This document shows positions 50,731 to 64,000 of a stretch of 64,000 nucleotides of DNA, in pieces. The stretch spans positions 1,731,828 through 1,795,827 of the forward strand of contig CBDBCA010000006.1 of assembly GCA_965202835.1 (NCBI GenBank), read 5' to 3'. This DNA comes from Alphaproteobacteria bacterium (lineage in GTDB: Bacteria; Pseudomonadota; Alphaproteobacteria; MPNO01). Every line of letters begins with the position of its first letter. Position 1 is the stretch's first letter. The notes beneath the pieces are model-generated. The model was not told the origin of the DNA. It saw only the letters and a list, made by a program, of their open reading frames with translations, and did no database searches. A program made the translations under genes and the position numbers.

Positions 50731-51285
50731 CTACCCCTTGCCGGCGAATTTGGGATAGAGGTTGCGGTAGCCGAGCTTCTTGCGGCTCTCGGCGTTCTCC
50801 CGCGCCTTCTCCGGGCTCATCGGGGTGAAGCCGTAACCCTGGACCAGCCGGCACATGAAGTTCATCCGCGCGGTGACGGCGATCGCGTCGTGCAGCGCCT
50901 TCTCGTCCCAGCCGGCGGCGAACACCGCGTCCGCGTCCTCCTGGCCCACCTCGGTCGGCGTGAGGGTGAGTTTCCGAGCGTAGGCGAGGAGCGGCTTAAG
51001 GCGGCCCTCCACCGGAGCGCTTTCAAGGTTCTCGACGGCCTTGTCGATGGCATCGCCGTCCATTCCCCACGCGACCGCCGCCGCGCGATGCGCGACCCAC
51101 GCGTATCGGCAATTCGCGGTGCCGACGACGAACGCCGCGATCGCCTCGCGCTCGCCGGGGGTCAGCGGCGACGGGCCGCGCATCAGCGCCTGGCTGGTGT
51201 CCGCCCATGGCAGATAGATCTCGGGATAGGCCTCGAAGACGTTGCCCGGGCCGGCGTCCGCCGGCAGCGACTTGAAGAACGGCAC
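50731..51285 (-). CDS. peroxidase-related AhpD-like / carboxymuconolactone decarboxylase family protein
   Basis: 184 aa, TIGR01926-like pattern (GTANCRYAWVAH). Confidence 0.7.
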   Translation of the reverse strand: MPFFKSLPADAGPGNVFEAYPEIYLPWADTSQALMRGPSPLTPGEREAIAAFVVGTANCRYAWVAHRAAAVAWGMDGDAIDKAVENLESAPVEGRLKPLLAYARKLTLTPTEVGQEDADAVFAAGWDEKALHDAIAVTARMNFMCRLVQGYGFTPMSPEKARENAESRKKLGYRNLYPKFAGKG

Positions 51286-51286
51286 G

Positions 51287-52006
51287 CTATCCCTCCCCTC
51301 GTTTGTCGAAAGCGGTCTGCATTTCGGCGGTCACCGCGCGGGCGACGCACGGGGGATTCTCCGCCCGGACGATCGGCCGGCCCATGACGATGTAATCGGC
51401 CCCCGCCTCGATCGCGTCAGTTGGCGTCCCGCCCCGCTTGTGGTCGTCCCGTGCGTGACCGGCCGGGCGAACGCCCGGCGTCCCGAGAAGCAGTTTGTCG
51501 GACGGCGCGATGGCGCGAATCCTACGGGCGTCCTGGGGCGCCGCGATCAGACCGTCGCAGCCGTATTCCATCGCCTTGCGCACGCGAATTTCGATCAACT
51601 CCTCGACCGGCCGGAGATAGCCCAACTCGCGCATGTCGTCGTCGTCGAGGTTTGTGAGCACCGAAATCGCGAAGACCTTTAGATCGGAACCATGCTTGGC
51701 TTCGTTGGCGGCGAGCAGGATGTCGCGGTTGCCGTGAACCGTGACCAGGCTGACGCCGCGCTCGGCGGCGCGCGCGACGCCTTCGCGCACGGTCTCGCCG
51801 ATGTCGTACATCTTGCAGTCGAGGAAGAGCTCCTTGCCGGAACGGAGCACGAGGTCGATCAGCCCTTCGATCCCCTTCGCATAGAGAAGCCAGGGGCCGA
51901 TCTTGTAATACGCGACGGAGTCGCCGAGCGTGTCGATCAGCGTCGTAGCCTCATCGACGGTCCTAACATCGAGCGCGACGATCAACCGCCGCTTCGCTTC
52001 GATCAT
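51287..52006 (-). CDS. pyrF: orotidine-5'-phosphate decarboxylase
   Basis: LIVALDV...FLDCKMYDIGETV...GRPI motifs. 239 aa. Confidence 0.9.
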   Translation of the reverse strand: MIEAKRRLIVALDVRTVDEATTLIDTLGDSVAYYKIGPWLLYAKGIEGLIDLVLRSGKELFLDCKMYDIGETVREGVARAAERGVSLVTVHGNRDILLAANEAKHGSDLKVFAISVLTNLDDDDMRELGYLRPVEELIEIRVRKAMEYGCDGLIAAPQDARRIRAIAPSDKLLLGTPGVRPAGHARDDHKRGGTPTDAIEAGADYIVMGRPIVRAENPPCVARAVTAEMQTAFDKRGEG

Positions 52007-52416
52007 CGGCCCGCGCCGGAAAGCTGCGCGCGCTTGGCGTCGACGCGCTCGGCCTGCCGGGCGAGGTCGACCACGAAGCGGACGTGGCGGCCCTTGCCCA
52101 CCAGGTCCACGGGATCGCGAACTTCGACATCGAGCGCGATCCGCCTGCCCTCGATCTCCGCGATTGTTCCCGTGACCTCGACCCAGGAACCCTCCAGCGA
52201 GGCGCCGAGATGATCGATCTCGACCTTCATGCCGACCGTCGCCTCGCTCCCGTCGAGATGTTGGGCGATCATCCCGAGGCAGGCGATCTCGATATCGCGC
52301 ACCATCGCGGGCGTCGCGTAGACCCGCCGGTCCTCGCCGAGAACGTCGATCGTACTTTCGCGCGTGATGTCGAACCGGCGGGTGACGCTGAGCCCCGGCC
52401 TGAGCGTGTCCTTCAT
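52003..52416 (-). CDS. hotdog-fold thioesterase family protein
   Basis: C-terminal 137 aa of ORF 52003..53409 (MKDTLRPG..., ATG at 52416). ATGA overlap with pyrF. Confidence 0.6.
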   Translation of the reverse strand: MKDTLRPGLSVTRRFDITRESTIDVLGEDRRVYATPAMVRDIEIACLGMIAQHLDGSEATVGMKVEIDHLGASLEGSWVEVTGTIAEIEGRRIALDVEVRDPVDLVGKGRHVRFVVDLARQAERVDAKRAQLSGAGR

Positions 52417-52427
52417 GCTGTCTCCTG

Positions 52428-53981
<1,554 letters not shown>

Positions 53982-53991
53982 ACCCCGACGT

Positions 53992-54097
53992 CGTCATGGT
54001 CGGCGGAGGCCGACCATCCACGTTTTGTTTTGGGTTTTCCGACCTCCCAACGCAAACAAAAAAACTCGTGGATGGTCGGCCTCCGCCGACCATGACG
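53992..54097. repeat. 31-bp perfect inverted repeat (cgtcatggtcggcggaggccgaccatccacg) with 44-nt spacer, in a divergent promoter region
   Basis: Arms at 53992..54022 and 54067..54097. Each arm contains an inner palindrome (ggtcggc...gccgacc). The spacer is itself quasi-palindromic (ttttgtttt...aaacaaaaaaa). Confidence 0.8.
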
Positions 54098-54198
54098 GAG
54101 AAAAGGCAAGAGCGGGAGCCCTCCGTCGTCGAATCGGGGGGTTCGGTTGCGACCCCGCCGGACGCTCCATAGGATGCCGACATTCGGGGAGGATCGGA

Positions 54199-54651
54199 TT
54201 GCAGATCGAAGACAGCTTTACCGTCGATGCGCCGCTGGAAAGGGTCTGGGCGATGATCACCGACCCCGAGGTGGTGGGACCGTGCATCCCGGGTTGCCAG
54301 CACATCGAGGTGACAGGCCCGGATACGTACAGGGCCGACATCAAGGTCGCCGTGGGTCCCATCAAGACGACATTTACGGTCACCGTGGAGAAGACCGAGG
54401 AACGGCCGCCCCATTTCGCAGCGTCGACCACAAAGGGAGAAGAAGGCGGTCGCGCCAGCACGCTTAATGCGACCAGCACGCTGTCGCTCTCGGAAGTCGA
54501 GGGAAAGACAGAGATCGCCTACGCCTCCGACGTTTCGGTTTTCGGCCGCCTCGGCAAGTTCGGTCTCGGCGTGATGAAGAAGAAGGCGCGCGACCTCGGG
54601 CACAGTTTCGCGGATACCTTCCGGGAAAAGGTCGAGGGAATCGCCAAATGA
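54199..54651 (+). CDS. SRPBCC / CoxG-family protein
   Basis: TTG start at 54199, preceded by GGGAGG. A CoxG-like pattern spans the ORF. Confidence 0.65.
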   Translation: MQIEDSFTVDAPLERVWAMITDPEVVGPCIPGCQHIEVTGPDTYRADIKVAVGPIKTTFTVTVEKTEERPPHFAASTTKGEEGGRASTLNATSTLSLSEVEGKTEIAYASDVSVFGRLGKFGLGVMKKKARDLGHSFADTFREKVEGIAK

Positions 54652-55181
54652 CCGGGGAAGCCGTTCCCGAATACGCGCGGCTGTTCGTCGAGGGGCTGAA
54701 GGAGGCCGACGTCAGCGTCGTCGCCGCGCTGCCCGAATCGCTGCTCGCTAGCGTTTATCGCCTGTGCGCGGCGGACAACGCGATTCGCTACATCCAGGTC
54801 TCGAACGAGGGCGACATGCCGGGAATCTGCGCCGGTACCTATCTCGCCGGCAAACGGGCGCTGATGATCATGGAGAATTCCGGGATCCGGCAGTGCTGCG
54901 AGCCGGTCGCGCGCCTCGCCTTCCAACACGCGGTGCCGATGGTGATGGCGATGAGCTATCGCGGCGAATGGGGCGAGCAGAACTGGTGGGGCCACAACCA
55001 CGCGCAGACCATGGCGCCGATTCTCGATTCGCTTCGCATTCCCCACCGCTTCGTCACGGAGACGGACGAGATCAAGCCGGCGATCAGTCGCGCATTCAAG
55101 CACGCCGACGGCAGCAACTGGCCGGTCGCGCTGGTGTTCTCGGGCGACTGCGTGGAGCTTCCCTCCTATGCGAAGGATTGA
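54648..55181 (+). CDS. TPP-dependent decarboxylase, alpha (N-terminal PYR domain) subunit, sulfopyruvate/phosphonopyruvate decarboxylase ComD-like
   Basis: 177 aa with a ComD-like TPP_enzyme_N pattern. ATGA overlap with the coxG-like gene. Confidence 0.7.
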   Translation: MTGEAVPEYARLFVEGLKEADVSVVAALPESLLASVYRLCAADNAIRYIQVSNEGDMPGICAGTYLAGKRALMIMENSGIRQCCEPVARLAFQHAVPMVMAMSYRGEWGEQNWWGHNHAQTMAPILDSLRIPHRFVTETDEIKPAISRAFKHADGSNWPVALVFSGDCVELPSYAKD

Positions 55182-55776
55182 CGCTTTCCGCGCGATCGCG
55201 CCGATGGTCTCGGCCGAAGACCTGGTGACGACCTCGATCGGGGCGACCTGGGACGACTGGTGGAACCTGAAGCCCGCCGACAATACCTTCTTCACGGGCG
55301 TCCTGGGTTCGGTGACGTCGACCGCGCTGGGGCTCGCGGTATCGCTGCCGCATCGGCGCATCGTCGCCTTCGAGAGCGATGGCTCGATGCTGATGAACAC
55401 CGGCATCCTGTGCACGCTGGGTGCCGAGCGCCCACCCAACCTGACGGTCCTCGTCTTCGACAACGGCATATACGAGAATATCGGCGGACCGCCCACGCTG
55501 ACCTCGAAGAATACCGATCTCGCGCGGATGGCCGAAGGGGCGGGATGCCTCAACTGCGCGACGGCCGGCGATCCGGACGCGCTGGCCGAGAGATTCTCCA
55601 CGATGCTCGACGACGGCGAGATGGGCTATCTGGTCGCCAAGATCGAGCCTGGCAAGCATCCCTGGGAGTGGAAGGACCGCAAGCCGACCGACGGGATCGA
55701 AGACAAGTACCGCTTCCTGCGCTATGTCGAACGGCTGGAAGGCGTGGTCATCCACCCGGGGGCACCGCAGAACTGA
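55168..55776 (+). CDS. TPP-dependent decarboxylase, beta (C-terminal TPP-binding) subunit, ComE-like
   Basis: GSMLMN...N TPP-binding (GDG-like) region. 202 aa. Overlaps the alpha subunit. Confidence 0.7.
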   Translation: MRRIDAFRAIAPMVSAEDLVTTSIGATWDDWWNLKPADNTFFTGVLGSVTSTALGLAVSLPHRRIVAFESDGSMLMNTGILCTLGAERPPNLTVLVFDNGIYENIGGPPTLTSKNTDLARMAEGAGCLNCATAGDPDALAERFSTMLDDGEMGYLVAKIEPGKHPWEWKDRKPTDGIEDKYRFLRYVERLEGVVIHPGAPQN

Positions 55777-55782
55777 GCCGCC

Positions 55783-56088
55783 ATGACGGCCGGGATCGAC
55801 GACAAGCGCTATCTCAACCTCACCGGCCCGTTCCGCGCGCTCTACCGCGCCGCGCGCGAGGCGGAAAAGGACGGGGCCGACGACGCAACGGCTCCGGAGG
55901 ACGCGCCGGAACCACCGGACCCGATCCACTCCGCGATCCGCCGCCAGGTCGAAGACCTGCTGGCGGACACGGATATCTCGCCCGAGCGGCGCCGGGAAAT
56001 CTTCGACTCGATATCCTGCCCCTGCTGCGGCGGAACCGGCGCCAGCTTCGCGATTTCCATCAAACCGGCCTCGCAGGCCGGGTTCTAG
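55783..56088 (+). CDS. hypothetical small protein with CPCCGG motif
   Basis: 101-aa ORF with an Asp/Glu-rich centre and a C-terminal SCPCCGGTG. Overlaps the hyuB stop by 4 nt, convergent. Confidence 0.35.
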   Translation: MTAGIDDKRYLNLTGPFRALYRAAREAEKDGADDATAPEDAPEPPDPIHSAIRRQVEDLLADTDISPERRREIFDSISCPCCGGTGASFAISIKPASQAGF

Positions 56089-57848
56089 GGATCGCCGGCC
56101 TGCGCCAGCGTCGCCTTGGCGGCGCGGATGCGTTCGGTAGCCTTGACATCGATTTCGAGAGTCGTCGCATCGCACACCACGCCGTAGTCGCGGAACGCGG
56201 CTTCGGGGGTGACATAGCCCTGGCGCACGTCGTGGGCGACCGCCTCGATCGCCCGTTCCAGAGGCGGACCGAACCCGCCCCCGCCCCCAGAACGAAGCGC
56301 GAAGGCCTCGCCCGGTCCGATTCGGGCGGTCAGAACCTTGGCGTTGGGATAGTCGTCCCTCCAGGCGCCGTCGCGGCGAAGCGACACCGAATTGCCCATC
56401 GCGTCCAGACCGCCGGCGAGCCCCCAGGGCGCGCAATGCATGCGGTCGATCTGCGTATTGACCGTGAGCGGCGCGCGGGCCTGGACGACGTTCTCGATGC
56501 CGAGCCCGCCGCGCTGCCGTCCGGCGCCGCAGGAATCGGGGCGCAGCGCGTGGGCTTCGAACAACAACGGGTACTTGGCCTCAAGCTGCTCGACGGGGCT
56601 GTTATGGGTGTCTCCGTCGTTCATGCAGATCGTCGCGCTGTTCCCGTCCGCCGCCTGTTTCGCGCCCCAGCCGCCGCCTGTCGGGCCGATGAAAACGATG
56701 TAGAACTCCGAGGTCTGGGGATTGACTCCGTTCAGCATGCCGATGATCAGGTCGGCATGGTGTCCGGCGACGATGCGGTCCGGGATCGCGGGCGCAAGCG
56801 CCTTGAACACCGTATCGACGATGGTCATCGGGAAGGTCATCCACCAGCGCATCGGCGCCGGCCTCTCGGCGCTGACGACGCGACCCATCGGCACCACCAC
56901 TTCCAGGTTGCGGAAGCTGCCGTCGTTGATCGGATAGTCGGTCGGCGAGGTAAGGCACTTGAACGCGACCTGCGAGCAGGCGAACCCCGTGGTCACGCCC
57001 GAGTTGTAGAAACCCTTGACCTGCTCCGACACGTCGGAAAGATCGACGGTTACCCGGTCTCCTTCGACGATCACCCTGACCCGGATGGGAACGGGCTGGG
57101 CGATGTCGACCCCGTCGTCGTCCATGAAGGACTCGGCCTGGTAGACTCCGTCCGGTATCGCGAGAGTCCGCGCGCGGGCGGCCGTTTCGGACTGATCCAT
57201 GATCTCCGCGATGCCGTCGAGCACCGCGTCGCGTCCGTAGCGGCGGATAAGTTCGAGAAAGCGCCTCTCTCCGCTGGAAATCGCCGTGAGCTGCGCGCGG
57301 AGGTCGCCCATCGCCCGCTCCGGCAGGCGGACGTTCATCTGCAGAATGTCGAGCAGGTCCTGGTTGACCTTGCCGGCCCTCTGGTACTTCAGGATGGGAA
57401 TCTGCAGACCTTCCGAATAGATGTCGGTGGTCATGCCGTCGAGCGTGCCGCCGATATCCGGCCAGTGCGCCATGCAGACCGCGAACCCGACCAGCGTGCC
57501 GCCGTCGAAGATCGGCATGCTGAAAGTCAGGTGGTTGAGATGGCTGCCGGTGATGTAGGCGTCGTTGGTGAGCAGAATGTCGCCCGGCCCGATATCGTCG
57601 CCGAAATGCCGCAGCTTGGCCTTCACGGTCTCCGCCATGCCGCGGATGAACATGGGCAGGCCGAGCCCGATGGAGACCGTCTCTCCCTTCGCCGTGAACA
57701 GCCCGACGGTGAAGTCGAGCGCCTCGTAGATGATCATGTTGTAGGCGGTGCGGGTGAGGTTGGTCTTCATCTCCTCGGTGATGGCGATCACGCCGTTTCG
57801 CACCAGCTCGGTGACCACCGGGTCGACGCGCGGGCGGTCTCCGTTCAT
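56085..57848 (-). CDS. hyuB: hydantoinase B / 5-oxoprolinase family (HyuB-like)
   Basis: C-terminal 587 aa of ORF 56085..58568 ([27 protein letters not shown]..., ATG at 57848). Confidence 0.85.
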   Translation of the reverse strand: MNGDRPRVDPVVTELVRNGVIAITEEMKTNLTRTAYNMIIYEALDFTVGLFTAKGETVSIGLGLPMFIRGMAETVKAKLRHFGDDIGPGDILLTNDAYITGSHLNHLTFSMPIFDGGTLVGFAVCMAHWPDIGGTLDGMTTDIYSEGLQIPILKYQRAGKVNQDLLDILQMNVRLPERAMGDLRAQLTAISSGERRFLELIRRYGRDAVLDGIAEIMDQSETAARARTLAIPDGVYQAESFMDDDGVDIAQPVPIRVRVIVEGDRVTVDLSDVSEQVKGFYNSGVTTGFACSQVAFKCLTSPTDYPINDGSFRNLEVVVPMGRVVSAERPAPMRWWMTFPMTIVDTVFKALAPAIPDRIVAGHHADLIIGMLNGVNPQTSEFYIVFIGPTGGGWGAKQAADGNSATICMNDGDTHNSPVEQLEAKYPLLFEAHALRPDSCGAGRQRGGLGIENVVQARAPLTVNTQIDRMHCAPWGLAGGLDAMGNSVSLRRDGAWRDDYPNAKVLTARIGPGEAFALRSGGGGGFGPPLERAIEAVAHDVRQGYVTPEAAFRDYGVVCDATTLEIDVKATERIRAAKATLAQAGDP

Positions 57849-59929
57849 CGCGCGGCGGCTCCGACGCGGATGCGGAGATTGCCGAACCCGTCGACTCCGA
57901 GACTGTCGCCCGGCAGCAGCAGCGTCGTCGATGCCTCTTCCTCGATCACCGCGGGCCCTTCGACGGTCGCTCCGGAGCCCAGACCGGCCCGCGCGTAAAC
58001 CGGCGTTTCCACGAAATCGCCCGTCTCGGAGAAATAGATCCGCCGCGTTTCCAGCGGAGCGGGATCGGCCGATCCACCTTCCGCGCCGCGCACCATCGGC
58101 GGCTTCCTGAGCAGACCCGAGACCGTCGTCCTGAGGCTCACCAGCTCGGCCGGCTCGGCCGGCGCCGACGTGCCGTAGCGCACCGCGTGCACCTCGTCGA
58201 AGCGGCGCTTGACGGCCTCCCGGTCGCCCGCCGAGAAGAGATCGGCGGCAAGATCGACCGTCACCGCATGCTCCTGGCCGACATAGCGCATGTCGGCGGC
58301 CCGTCCCACGACGACGGCTTCGACTTCGGCGCCGGTGGCGGCCACCGCCGCGCGGCCCTGCGCTTCCATCTCGTCGTAGAGCCGTTCGACCTCGTCGAGC
58401 GGCGCCTCGGCCAGGCGCGCGAACCACGTCCGGACGTAGTCGTAGCGGAGATCGGCGTGCAGCATCCCGATAGCCGAAAAGTGGCCGGGTGCCGGCGGAA
58501 CAACGATTTGTCCCATGCCGATCTCGCGCGCCACCGCGCTGGCGTGCAGCGGCCCGGCGCCGCCGCACGCGACCAGCGTGAACGCGCCGGCATCGAGACC
58601 GCGCTCGGTGGAGACTCCCTTGACCGCGAACGACATGGCAGTGGCGGCGATCTGCAGCACACCGGCCGCCGCTTCCACGACATCCATGCCGAGCGGGTCC
58701 GCGACATCAGTCCTCATCGCGTCGTGCGCGGCATCGGGATCGAGCGTCATCTCACCGCCGAGAAACCTGTCCGGGGCGATCCGACCCAGGATCAGGTTGG
58801 CGTCGGTGACCGTCGGCGCCGTGCCGCCGGTCCCATAACATGCGGGCCCCGGGGTCGCGCCGGCGCTTTCCGGTCCCACACGGAGCGCGCCGCGCGCATC
58901 GGCACGCGCGATCGACCCGCCGCCGGTGCCGACCTCGAAAATGTCCATCATGGCGATCTGGACCGGCAGCCCCTGCTCGTACCCGCCGATCTTCGCGCTT
59001 CCCGTGGTCAGCGCCTCGCCGCCATAGATGACCCCCGACTTGGCGGTGGTGCCGCCCATGTCGAAGGTGATCGCGTTTTCGATCCCCACGGCACGGGCCA
59101 GTGCGCGGCCGGCGATGACGCCCGCGGCGGGACCCGATTCGAGCATGTGGACGCAGTCGTGCCGAGCCTGTGCGGCGTCGTAGAGCCCGCCGGTCGATTG
59201 CACGACGAGGAAGGCGCCGGGGAAAGACCGGGCGTCGAGATGCTCGCCGATCCCGTCGAGATAGCTGCGAACGCCCGGACCGATATAGGCGTTCGCCGCG
59301 ACGGTCGAGCAGCGTTCGAACTCGCGGTATTCCTGCGAGAGCTCGTAGGAAGCGGTGACGAACGCGCCCGGCAGACATTCCTCCAGGATTTCTTTCGTCC
59401 GCTTTTCGTGGTCCGGATTGCGATAGCTGTGCAGAAGCAGGATCGCGACGGCCTCGACATCGAGCCCGGCGAGCTTTTCCCCGAGCGCGCGAACCTCGTC
59501 CTCGTCGAGCGGGGTCAGCGGCTCGCCCTCGGCAAGCATCCGTTCGTCGAGCTCGAAGCACATCGCGCGCTCGATCAGCGGGCGGTGCTTCTTGAAGAAC
59601 AGGTTGTACGAATCGGGCCGGTTGATCCGGCCGATCTCGTAGATGTCGCGAAATCCCTTTGTGATGACCAGCGCGGCCCGCGCGCCGGTCCTCTCCAGCA
59701 TCGTGTTGATGGCGATCGTCGAGCCATGCAGGAAAAGCGCCGCGTCGGCGAACGCGACTCCCGCCCTGTCTACCCCGGCGGCGATCCCGTCCACCAGATG
59801 CGAAGGCGTAGACAGCGCCTTGCCGAGCCTGAGCGCGCCCGTCGCCGGGTCGAAGGCTGCGATATCGGTGAACGTGCCGCCGATATCGGCGGCGAGCCTC
59901 AGCCCGCCGGGAATTTCCGGATCCGCCAT
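57845..59929 (-). CDS. hyuA: hydantoinase A / 5-oxoprolinase family (HyuA-like)
   Basis: 694 aa. N-terminal [16 protein letters not shown]-fold motif. ATGA overlap with hyuB. Confidence 0.85.
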
Positions 59930-60012
59930 GCCTGGTCCGAAGGTGAGAAATCCGTGCGCGCGCGACTATCGAAACGGGCACGGGCGGAGTCAACTGGACG
60001 GAAGGAAACGTC

Positions 60013-60903
60013 CTAACCGGCGGCCCGCAGCATCCGGATGATGCCGGAGAAATCCGAGCCTTCTTCACCGTCGGCGCAGTACTGTTCATAGAGCGCGGCG
60101 GCGTGGCTGCCGAGAGGTGTGTTGGCGCCGTTCGCCTGGGCGGCGCCGCGCGCGAGCCTCAGGTCCTTGAGCATCATCGCGGCGGTGAAGCCTGCCTGGT
60201 AATCGCGGTTGGCGGGCGATGACGGTACCGGCCCCGGCACCGGGCAATAGCTGGTGAGCGACCAGCACTGGCCCGACGCGGTTGACACAATGTCGAACAG
60301 CGTCTGGGCATCGAGACCGACCCGTTCCGCGAGCGCGAAGGCCTCCGACACCGCGATCATCGAGACACCGAGGACCATGTTGTTGCACATCTTGGCCGCC
60401 TGGCCGTTTCCCGCTCCGCCGGCGTGAACGATGTTGCGGCCCATCGCGGCCATCATGGACTCTCCCCGCGCGACGGCATCCGCTTCGCCGCCGACCATGA
60501 AGGTGAGCGTGCCCGCTTCGGCCCCGCCGACCCCGCCGGAGACCGGCGCGTCCAGCATGGCGAAACCTTTGGCGGATGCCTCTGCATGGACGGCGCGAGC
60601 GGTTTCGAGATCGATGGTGGAGCAGTCGACGAGCAGGGTGCCCGGGTCCGCCGCTTCCAGCAGGCCGCCGGCATCGCAATAGACCGAACCCACGTCCGCG
60701 CCTGCCGGCAGCATGGTGAACACCGCCTCCACGCCGTCCGTCGCCGCCGCCAGCTCGTCGACCGGCGGGATTTCCGCCACCTTTGCCGCCTCGCGCGCGG
60801 ACTCGGCAACATCGAAACCACGCACGGCGTGCCCGGCCGCGATCAGCCGGCATGCCATCGGCCGCCCCATATTGCCCAACCCGACGAAACCGATCTCCGC
60901 CAT
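60013..60903 (-). CDS. mmsB: 3-hydroxyisobutyrate dehydrogenase
   Basis: Start MAEIGFVGLGNMGRPMA (NAD-binding GxGxxG). GAGNGQAAKMCNN motif. Confidence 0.85.
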   Translation of the reverse strand: MAEIGFVGLGNMGRPMACRLIAAGHAVRGFDVAESAREAAKVAEIPPVDELAAATDGVEAVFTMLPAGADVGSVYCDAGGLLEAADPGTLLVDCSTIDLETARAVHAEASAKGFAMLDAPVSGGVGGAEAGTLTFMVGGEADAVARGESMMAAMGRNIVHAGGAGNGQAAKMCNNMVLGVSMIAVSEAFALAERVGLDAQTLFDIVSTASGQCWSLTSYCPVPGPVPSSPANRDYQAGFTAAMMLKDLRLARGAAQANGANTPLGSHAAALYEQYCADGEEGSDFSGIIRMLRAAG

Positions 60904-63653: not shown

Positions 63654-63765
63654 CGTGGCCGCAGGGCAGGGTTTTCCGCCGGGCTCTTTCCCTGTCCCGG
63701 CCGGCCCGGTATACGATTGCGCGGAAACGGCGACCCGGACGGCGGTCACAGAGGAGACGAAACGG

Positions 63766-64000
63766 ATGCGTTACGAAGCGCCGGCGTCGCTGGACGCGGC
63801 GACGAGATTGCTGGCCGACGCCGGCGGCGCGGCGAGGGTGCTGGCCGGCGGGACCGACCTGCTGATCCAGATGCGCGGCGATCTGGTCGAACCCGAGATT
63901 CTGGTAGACATCAAGAACATCGCCGAAATGCGCGAAATTTCCGAGGAGGACGGGCGTTTCCGGCTCGGCGCCGCGGTGACGGGCATGGAGATCATGGAGC
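63766..64000 (+). CDS. molybdopterin dehydrogenase FAD-binding subunit (CoxM/XdhB-like), 5' partial at window edge
   Basis: GAGGAG ribosome-binding site, then MRYEAPASLDAATRLLADAGGAARVLAGGTDLLIQM (FAD_binding_5 N-terminus). Confidence 0.7.
   Translation, partial: MRYEAPASLDAATRLLADAGGAARVLAGGTDLLIQMRGDLVEPEILVDIKNIAEMREISEEDGRFRLGAAVTGMEIME

Follow-up and report, generated by a model that had tools for sequence, protein, structure and literature searches.

The DNA analysed here, called the window throughout, is a 64,000-nucleotide stretch (64 kb) of contig CBDBCA010000006.1 from an alphaproteobacterial genome assembly, and the subject is a group of six genes at positions 54199 to 59929. Four lie on the forward strand, namely a coxG-like gene, the two genes of a split thiamine pyrophosphate (TPP) enzyme (TPPα and TPPβ) and a small open reading frame (ORF) encoding 101 amino acids (aa), and these converge on a hyuA-hyuB pair of the hydantoinase family on the reverse strand. 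The G+C content of the window is 63–71%, and the nearest relatives of its DNA are Defluviicoccus sp. and alphaproteobacterial metagenome-assembled genomes (MAGs). A preliminary description, made from the sequence alone, had presented the six genes as one catabolic module. The features of the locus are the following.

54188–54193, forward strand: Shine-Dalgarno sequence of the coxG-like gene, GGAGGA, 5 nt before the TTG
54199–54651, forward strand: coxG-like SRPBCC gene, 150 aa, TTG start, PF06240 match at 1.4e-21
54648–55181, forward strand: TPP enzyme alpha (PYR-domain) subunit, 177 aa, weak PF02776 match
55168–55776, forward strand: TPP enzyme beta (PP-domain) subunit, 202 aa, PF02775 match at 4.4e-12
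55783–56088, forward strand: small His/Cys3 protein gene, 101 aa, invariant H49, C79, C81, C82 and G83
56085–57848, reverse strand: hyuB (hydantoinase B family), 587 aa, PF02538 match at 1e-149, tetrad D45-H103-H106-H128
57845–59929, reverse strand: hyuA (hydantoinase A family, ATP-binding subunit), 694 aa, PF05378, PF01968 and PF19278 matches
59965–59993, reverse strand: sigma-70-like promoter match between an mmsB-like gene and hyuA, TTGACT-17-GATAGT, 9/12 positions, a consensus match only

All six genes have the identities first given to them. The overlapping, operon-like junctions that had been described are also present: coxG and TPPα share an ATGA, TPPα and TPPβ overlap by 14 nt, hyuA and hyuB again share an ATGA, and there is a 6 nt gap between TPPβ and the small ORF. 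Where the two runs of genes meet, the stop codon of the small ORF (TAG, 56086–56088) and that of hyuB (complement of 56085–56087) share the palindrome CTAG at 56085–56088, which is the 4-nt overlap already noted in the preliminary description; a terminator-like site was looked for at this convergent junction and none was found. The TTG start of coxG is backed by the lengths of its homologues (149–152 aa) and by alignment to the CoxG-like protein of locus L032, with 55% identity from residue 1. The start of hyuB is the ATG at 57848, and the longest ORF, from a GTG at 58568, is not the gene. The promoter match 5' of hyuA is the sole one of its kind within 53800–60200.

Within the window's clade, defined as 17 species-level loci in which TPPβ is at least 81% identical and made up of a narrow set of Defluviicoccus-like alphaproteobacterial MAGs, the six genes are contiguous in 10 loci. 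Three loci carry insertions of 1.9–6.5 kb between the small ORF and hyuB, with genes that include a Rieske oxygenase, a glutathione S-transferase and binding proteins. Two (L024 and L026) have kept hyuBA and have no small ORF, and two (L014 and L027) have kept coxG, TPPαβ and the small ORF and have no hyuBA within 10 kb. Outside of the clade, the block splits into unit A, which is coxG-TPPα-TPPβ, and unit B, which is the small ORF with hyuB-hyuA. The conservation of a six-gene block therefore stands for one narrow clade and not beyond it, where there are two units instead.

The genes surrounding the small ORF were counted for 49 distinct small proteins with enough flanking DNA, and a metagenome scan added 73 loci. 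A convergent hyuB directly follows the small gene in 26 of the 49, an Amidohydro_2 gene is directly upstream or divergent in 18, both are adjacent in 10, and neither is in 15. The stop-to-stop spacing between the small gene and hyuB ranges from -17 to about +340 nt (approximately 48 loci), and the identical 4-nt stop overlap is seen in L090, L106, L107, L110, and L116, whose HyuB are 68–72% identical to that of the window. In L047 and L048, where the small protein is 38–41% identical, the gene is again convergent with an abutting hyuB-hyuA pair and the upstream genes are unrelated. Indeed, what lies 5' of the small gene varies by locus, being an Amidohydro_2 gene, a glycosyltransferase, a metallo-β-lactamase-fold gene, or CoxG-TPP. 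In one lineage (L007, 7648–9847; L008, 3216–5460) the small CPCC gene has been kept and coxG-TPPαβ replaced, by one gene whose product of 421–436 aa is metallo-β-lactamase/β-CASP-like and another whose 303-aa product has no family match. These neighbourhoods favour the tie between the small ORF and HyuAB that had been suspected at the outset, and they place the gene with hyuB, not with the TPP genes to which it had been joined. The conserved tail-to-tail and often overlapping arrangement may couple the expression of the two genes through antisense transcription.

The 101-aa ORF is a genuine coding gene belonging to a large family. It has 28 clusters of close homologues at 57–99% identity, in which the ends are conserved, the linker is variable, and the linker insertions and deletions are of whole codons. 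Profile searches recovered 81 clusters of relatives of 40–141 aa, together with two longer multi-stretch matches, from 1.84 billion cluster representatives, and 1,691 relatives from a set of 5.8 billion proteins; every name given to these by its source is 'hypothetical protein'. Across 78 distinct DNA sequences the entropy at the three codon positions is 0.90/0.67/1.31, and the G+C content at third positions is 0.81. In these 78 sequences the invariant codons change synonymously (TGC/TGT, CAC/CAT, CCG/CCC/CCA), and stop codons interrupt every one of the five alternative frames in 13–61 of them. No Pfam or NCBIfam model matched the window's small ORF or distant members of the family, and a tblastn search of 72,556 plasmids with a typical member found nothing.

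The residues H49, C79, C81, C82, and G83 are invariant in 146 sequences, giving the pattern His-x29-Cys-Pro-Cys-Cys-Gly. The motif SCPCCGGTG spans residues 78–86 of 101, and so the protein does not end in it as had been stated. In the AlphaFold2 model (predicted local distance difference test score, pLDDT, 69) there is a confident helical hairpin at 47–61/67–76, with the His at its start and the CPCC just past its end. From these residues the small protein would be expected to bind metal. CxCC is the metal-binding motif of COG0523 (PMC2770081), and the CPCC of the small protein fits it. The resemblance to COG0523 (CobW/ZigA/YjiA) is one of motif only, as the small protein ranges from 60 to 130 aa, has no GTPase (cobW) domain and shows no detectable homology to that family, to which it cannot be assigned. 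With the PF08882 γ subunit of acetone carboxylases it shares a genetic tie to a HyuAB-type enzyme, in a small Cys protein, and a local CP-x-CG resemblance. It differs in having one His and three Cys rather than two CxxC pairs and in lying on the opposite strand, and the two are not homologous: PF08882 matched neither the window ORF nor 10 distant members, and comparison with acetone-carboxylase γ-like subunits gave an hhalign probability of 2.3%. The suggested analogy with a carboxylase small subunit is thus not borne out.

The HyuAB pair is itself atypical. In CapB the HyuB metal ligands are Asp41-His99-Asp102-His124, which are described as conserved across carboxylases, hydantoinases, and oxoprolinases (PMC8453981). 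When the window's HyuB is aligned to 6yra_B and 7hk5 the corresponding tetrad is D45-H103-H106-H128, in which His106 replaces Asp102 of CapB, so that the D-H-D-H arrangement of the family is not present. Membership of the HyuB family is nonetheless clear from the PF02538 match (1e-149). The altered motif, GSHLNH (D-H-H-H), is found in every HyuB examined that is at least 53% identical to the window's, a set of over 45 loci to which plasmids from Microvirga, Streptomyces, and a Comamonadaceae strain belong. HxxD (D-H-D-H) is retained in 6yra, 7hk5, and the HyuB clade linked to TPP genes. For CapA, the ATP motifs DxGGTxTD, DxGGT, and GxxPGP have been described (PMC8453981), and the phosphate-1, phosphate-2, and adenosine motifs of the ASKHA fold are present in the HyuA translation, including GATPGP.

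The window's enzyme matches 7hk5, an N-methylhydantoinase, at 1.6e-89 and 6yra_B, from the caprolactamase CapAB, at 4.5e-70, and the likeness to these systems lies in the HyuA/HyuB architecture, the ASKHA motifs, and three of the four metal ligands. The differences are the His106 in place of Asp102 and the conserved convergent small His/Cys3 gene of the window. Against the CapA and CapB models NF050156 and NF050157, HyuA and HyuB score 508 and 299 bits, where the cut-offs are 1000, and so the pair is not assigned as a caprolactamase. The ApcC and ApcD models give 283 and 125 bits, and acetone carboxylase models about 50 bits. This ranking would place HyuAB nearer to lactamases and hydantoinases than to carboxylases. 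It is, from sequence, not a canonical oxoprolinase, because its scores are well short of the CapAB cut-offs, its metal tetrad is altered, and it ranks as it does among the hidden Markov models (HMMs). The expectation that it would lie outside of the housekeeping 5-oxoprolinase clade was correct.

In cultured strains the D-H-H-H HyuAB genes are followed by others on the same strand (L124, 7860–9376; L123, 8802–9221; L125, 6907–8246). On the Comamonadaceae plasmid these encode a 123-aa protein containing SSCGCGAGGVSLQL and a CobW/COG0523 GTPase, in Streptomyces they are trxB-trxA, and another cultured strain has a homologous 139-aa protein (HPAGCTCMGH). These genes hint at a metal or thiol requirement. 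The Cys proteins downstream of hyuB in Microvirga and the Comamonadaceae strain show a 12-residue resemblance to the small-family HMM, at 4 bits, which is not significant. The AMP-binding gene beside HyuAB in Streptomyces is only 31% identical to that of the window and gives no support for counting the operon of the latter as part of the module. In L011/L039 (731–2464 and 1–701) and L042 (4438–6111 and 6177–7928), two HyuB paralogues come after HyuA, and one of the two has degenerate metal ligands, Q-K-E-H or S-S-Y-H. This is reminiscent of acetophenone carboxylase, in which an additional subunit is catalytically silent.

In unit A, the CoxG-like product is matched by PF06240 over residues 6–145 of 150, with 77.2 bits against a gathering score of 22.2, and is therefore a full-length CoxG. 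CoxG is an SRPBCC accessory protein that normally heads molybdenum (Mo) hydroxylase operons. The window gene resembles these in its full-length domain and in having orthologues that head CoxMSL operons in related loci; it differs in that its translation is coupled to that of a TPP enzyme and that CoxMSL genes are not adjacent to it. The TPP enzyme can be assigned to the superfamily of split PYR/PP decarboxylases on its TPP/Mg motif, its PF02775 and PF02776 matches, and a putative catalytic Glu in the PYR domain. This Glu, in the NEGD motif of TPPα, would be the one expected for cofactor activation, and D71-G72-S73...D98-N99 of TPPβ is invariant in 13 beta subunits.

There are 582 homologues of TPPβ (E ≤ 1e-5), often 59–78% identical, in MAGs of Alphaproteobacteria, Actinomycetota, and Planctomycetota, and the 33 genomic relatives of the TPP genes that were recovered are all MAGs. 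TPPα matches PDB 9u8r_A at 8.9e-29 and 9iz3_A, a phosphonopyruvate decarboxylase alpha subunit, at 5.9e-13. For 9u8q/r/s, the closest solved relative of TPPαβ, a literature search gave no paper. With ComDE and the RhiEF-type phosphonopyruvate decarboxylase (9iz3), its best-scoring NCBIfam and PDB relatives, the family shares split PYR and PP subunits and the lack of a middle domain.

The company of the TPP genes was determined by clustering ORFs across 18 distant TPPαβ loci. An orthologous CoxM/CoxS/CoxL set, 47–88% identical among themselves, is carried by 12 of the 18, mostly immediately 5' of TPPα (CoxM with FAD_binding_5, CoxS with Fer2_2, and CoxL with Ald_Xan_dh_C/MoCoBD domains). A CoxG-like gene is present in three (L029, L032, and L040), where it heads a CoxG-CoxM-CoxS-CoxL-TPP operon. 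Other recurring partners are an isochorismatase-like amidase (232 aa), an amidohydrolase (approximately 470 aa), and NMT1- or BMP-type ABC transporters. Seven of about 17 distant loci also have, no more than 10 kb from TPPαβ and in at least five arrangements, HyuA and HyuB genes together with one for an Acetone_carb_G-like small subunit, and in L033 and L034 the recurrent partners, HyuAB, and the Acetone_carb_G-like subunit are all on one strand. These HyuAB are 28–37% identical to those of the window and have the canonical metal site. The pairing of a TPP decarboxylase with HyuAB seen in the preliminary description is thus found again, with HyuAB of a different clade. On a plasmid of Rhizobium tumorigenes, TPPαβ 43–49% identical to the window pair are accompanied by a GMC oxidoreductase, an amidohydrolase, Rieske dioxygenase subunits, a Mo subunit, a 2Fe-2S protein, and a BMP transporter.

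Taken with a probability of roughly 0.5, the best explanation is that this locus is the junction of two independently conserved catabolic units, probably for the breakdown of N-heterocyclic or cyclic-amide compounds, a substrate class that we infer. A functional link between units A and B is plausible because TPPαβ recurs with Hyu-type enzymes. Unit A would be a two-subunit TPP-dependent decarboxylase with the fold of ComDE and phosphonopyruvate decarboxylase, from which the middle domain is absent, and its CoxG would be an accessory left over from a Mo-hydroxylase operon. In unit B, HyuAB would carry out ATP-dependent ring opening of the lactam or hydantoin type, with HyuA phosphorylating the substrate and HyuB hydrolysing it at a metal site predicted to be Asp-His-His-His in place of Asp-His-Asp-His. 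The small protein would bind metal through its invariant His and Cys-Pro-Cys-Cys (CxCC) and, once loaded, may act as a chaperone for, or an additional subunit of, HyuAB or nearby metal hydrolases.

The nearest functional parallel for unit A is the recently reconstituted pathway of lumichrome (riboflavin) catabolism in Nocardioides simplex (PMC12746152). There the pyrimidine ring is opened by the amidases LumH/I/M (80, 24, and 52 kDa), which yields a heterocyclic α-keto-like acid; this is decarboxylated by LumK/LumL (20 and 23 kDa), a two-subunit TPP 'heterocycle decarboxylase', and the product is then hydroxylated by the xanthine oxidase LumJ. By analogy, unit A would decarboxylate a heterocyclic or ring-opened 2-oxo (α-imino) acid supplied by amidases, and a molybdenum hydroxylase would act after it. 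The comparison is based upon the two subunits of approximately 20 and 23 kDa, which are of 177 and 202 aa here, and it would mean that the enzyme works like LumK/LumL, not that it is a member of the same group. The enzymes of the lumichrome pathway, being amidases, a xanthine-oxidase-family hydroxylase, Rieske dioxygenases, and transporters, are the gene set found around the relatives of the window's TPPαβ. For the window itself only the subunit sizes fit, with HyuAB in place of the amidases and the orthologous CoxMSL absent. The window's clade also differs from the lumichrome system in having no adjacent orthologous Mo hydroxylase, P450, or catechol dioxygenase genes, and therefore the substrate need not be a quinoxaline. 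Both the LumK/LumL-like chemistry and the partnership of the small protein with HyuAB are what we infer from these comparisons.

A broader and more tentative proposal, which we hold to be possible and short of even odds, is that the His-x29-CPCC-G proteins are a new and widespread mini family for metal handling, as metallochaperones or third subunits, and that together with the D-H-H-H HyuAB they mark out a class of ATP-dependent ring-opening enzymes that has so far gone unrecognised and whose catalytic metal centre is different. Enzymes of the hydantoinase/oxoprolinase family serve as biocatalysts for stable lactams and hydantoins, and to our knowledge most HyuAB clades have no substrate assigned. 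If this is true, a HyuAB clade whose metal site is altered and which has a small Cys/His partner of its own would be a new mechanistic variant. The small protein also adds one conserved small-protein family, with 1,691 unannotated profile matches, that is absent from Pfam and NCBIfam. For two-subunit TPP decarboxylases we know of only three reported activities, in coenzyme M biosynthesis, rhizocticin biosynthesis and, since 2025, lumichrome catabolism. That the TPPαβ family is often beside Mo hydroxylases suggests 'heterocycle decarboxylation' as a general step in N-heterocycle breakdown.

Several observations weigh against the explanation of two catabolic units with a small metal-binding partner. 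The HyuAB clade beside distant TPPαβ is different from that of the window, and therefore the juxtaposition of TPP and HyuAB genes here could be lineage-specific synteny. The window's own clade has no orthologous CoxMSL, and the CoxM and CoxS beginning at the right end of the window share only 32% and 45% identity with the set linked to the TPP genes. Because the small gene and hyuB converge, the two are not co-transcribed, an arrangement that is unusual for subunits of one enzyme. The small gene is absent from three cultured-strain plasmids with D-H-H-H HyuAB, and 23 of the 49 distinct members of its family have no adjacent hyuB. A marine subgroup (L050–L079 and L114; for example L055, 4581–11727) has no hyuB at all; there, an Amidohydro_2 gene and the small CPCC gene are met by convergent TauD, IorB-like Mo subunit, 2Fe-2S, Amidohydro_2, and UbiD genes, flanked by a TctC binding protein, a quinone oxidoreductase, and a 2-hydroxyacid dehydrogenase, in what appears to be an uncharacterised pathway for an aromatic or heterocyclic acid. 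As for the protein itself, metal binding is read from its residues only, AlphaFold2 confidence is low at the CPCC motif and in the C-terminal tail, and a Foldseek search of the PDB with the model returned nothing below E = 6.

The alternatives differ in how much they ask of the neighbourhood data. Were the six genes a single module, with the Cys-rich ORF as the third subunit of a carboxylase-like HyuAB, their contiguity in 10 of 17 clade loci would be accounted for, as would the frequency of HyuAB at distant TPPαβ loci, where an Acetone_carb_G-like subunit goes with it. This is rather improbable given that the block dissolves beyond one clade, that the small ORF is not a PF08882 protein by domain match or hhalign (2.3%), and that HyuAB scores far higher with lactamase and hydantoinase models than with those for carboxylases. 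At the other extreme, the two units may lie together without any shared function, the TPP operon being unrelated to hyuBA and the small protein an independent metalloprotein or regulator found at operon ends. Such a lack of function in common would fit with the absence of hyuBA within 10 kb in L014 and L027 and of the small gene in L024 and L026, with the 15 of 49 small genes that lack both neighbours, the convergent hyuB and the adjacent Amidohydro_2, and with the apparently mobile hairpin elements (described below) and 1.9–6.5 kb insertions at the junction. It is considered unlikely, since the convergent adjacency persists where HyuB is only 51–72% identical and the upstream genes have changed, and since TPPαβ and HyuAB are within 10 kb of one another in 7 of about 17 distant loci, where a random expectation over 20 kb would be a few percent (a rough estimate that was not computed).

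The small His/Cys3 protein might alternatively be an accessory of Amidohydro_2 enzymes, which are metal-dependent decarboxylases or lactonases, its position next to hyuB being secondary. In its favour, 18 of the 49 small genes, those of the marine subgroup without hyuB among them, are immediately preceded by an Amidohydro_2 gene that is either co-oriented or divergent. Against it, the window's clade has no such gene near the small ORF, and the one weak homologue that the window contains lies at a distance of 38 kb; a convergent hyuB is found more often (26 versus 18 of 49), in 16 cases with no Amidohydro_2 gene beside the small gene, and together these points make the account rather improbable. 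That TPPαβ is a true sulfopyruvate or phosphonopyruvate decarboxylase, in an operon for organosulfonate or phosphonate metabolism, is suggested by the identity of its best NCBIfam models and by the Joint Genome Institute (JGI) annotation of relatives as 'sulfopyruvate decarboxylase subunit beta'. The scores, at 89.1 bits for TPPα with TIGR03845 (ComD; cut-off 147.95), 102.6 bits for TPPβ with TIGR03846 (ComE; cut-off 221.5), and 77 and 86 bits with the phosphonopyruvate decarboxylase model TIGR03297 (cut-off 312.5), are far under the equivalog cut-offs, and plasmid-borne annotated ComE genes are only 31–35% identical to TPPβ. The gene lists of approximately 45 neighbourhoods show Mo hydroxylases, amidases, and Rieske oxygenases, with no phosphoenolpyruvate (PEP) mutase, coenzyme M, sulfonate, or sulfoacetaldehyde genes seen, and without this sulfonate or phosphonate context the assignment is very improbable. 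Least credible of all is that the 101-aa ORF arose by chance in GC-rich DNA or is an antisense shadow of the hyuB strand. Although it lacks a Pfam or NCBIfam model and a convincing Shine-Dalgarno sequence, and spurious ORFs are many in high-GC DNA, this idea is refuted by the codon-position entropy, third-position G+C, synonymous changes, and broken alternative frames, and the family is also found in DNA of 51–62% GC, with linker indels of whole codons.

Beyond the six genes, the window has the following features.

50731–53981, reverse strand: operon divergent from coxG, to its left, with an AMP-binding CoA ligase (acyl-CoA synthetase), an FlK-type thioesterase, pyrF, and a CMD/peroxidase-related gene
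53991–54098: hairpin of approximately 108 nt separating coxG from the AMP-binding gene, built on a perfect inverted repeat of 28 nt with arms at 53995–54022 and 54067–54094
approximately 63760–64000, forward strand, running off the window: CoxM-like FAD-binding subunit of a molybdenum hydroxylase, 40% identity over residues 27–78

The divergent operon was considered as a part of the module and rejected, as it is missing in L005 and L023 and its pyrF is of housekeeping grade, scoring above the housekeeping equivalog cut-off. It is otherwise syntenic in most of the clade, and the placing of a CoA ligase immediately before an FlK-type (fluoroacetyl-CoA-like) thioesterase is an odd pairing. To the right of hyuA there are mmsB-like, enoyl-CoA hydratase/hydrolase, and acyl-CoA dehydrogenase genes. 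In related loci the CoxM-like gene at the right end continues with CoxS and CoxL, probably making up a paralogous hydroxylase. As the cognate hydroxylase of the TPP enzyme this CoxM/CoxS was rejected, and because of the identities of only 32% and 45% given above the two are treated as paralogues.

The hairpin has a folding energy of -82.6 kcal/mol (z-score -11.6), and an Rfam scan of 53500–60200 gave only a sub-threshold match to a microRNA (miRNA) model, which reflects the inverted repeat. The core of the repeat is present elsewhere in related genomes, upstream of coxG in L017 and between the small ORF and hyuB in L015, where its presence is the reason for the 202-nt gap between these genes. 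This suggests that it is a small mobile palindromic element, similar to repetitive extragenic palindromic (REP) sequences or miniature inverted-repeat transposable elements (MITEs). Away from this locus, the G+C content of the window peaks at 0.712 between 28001 and 30000, against a background of approximately 0.65.

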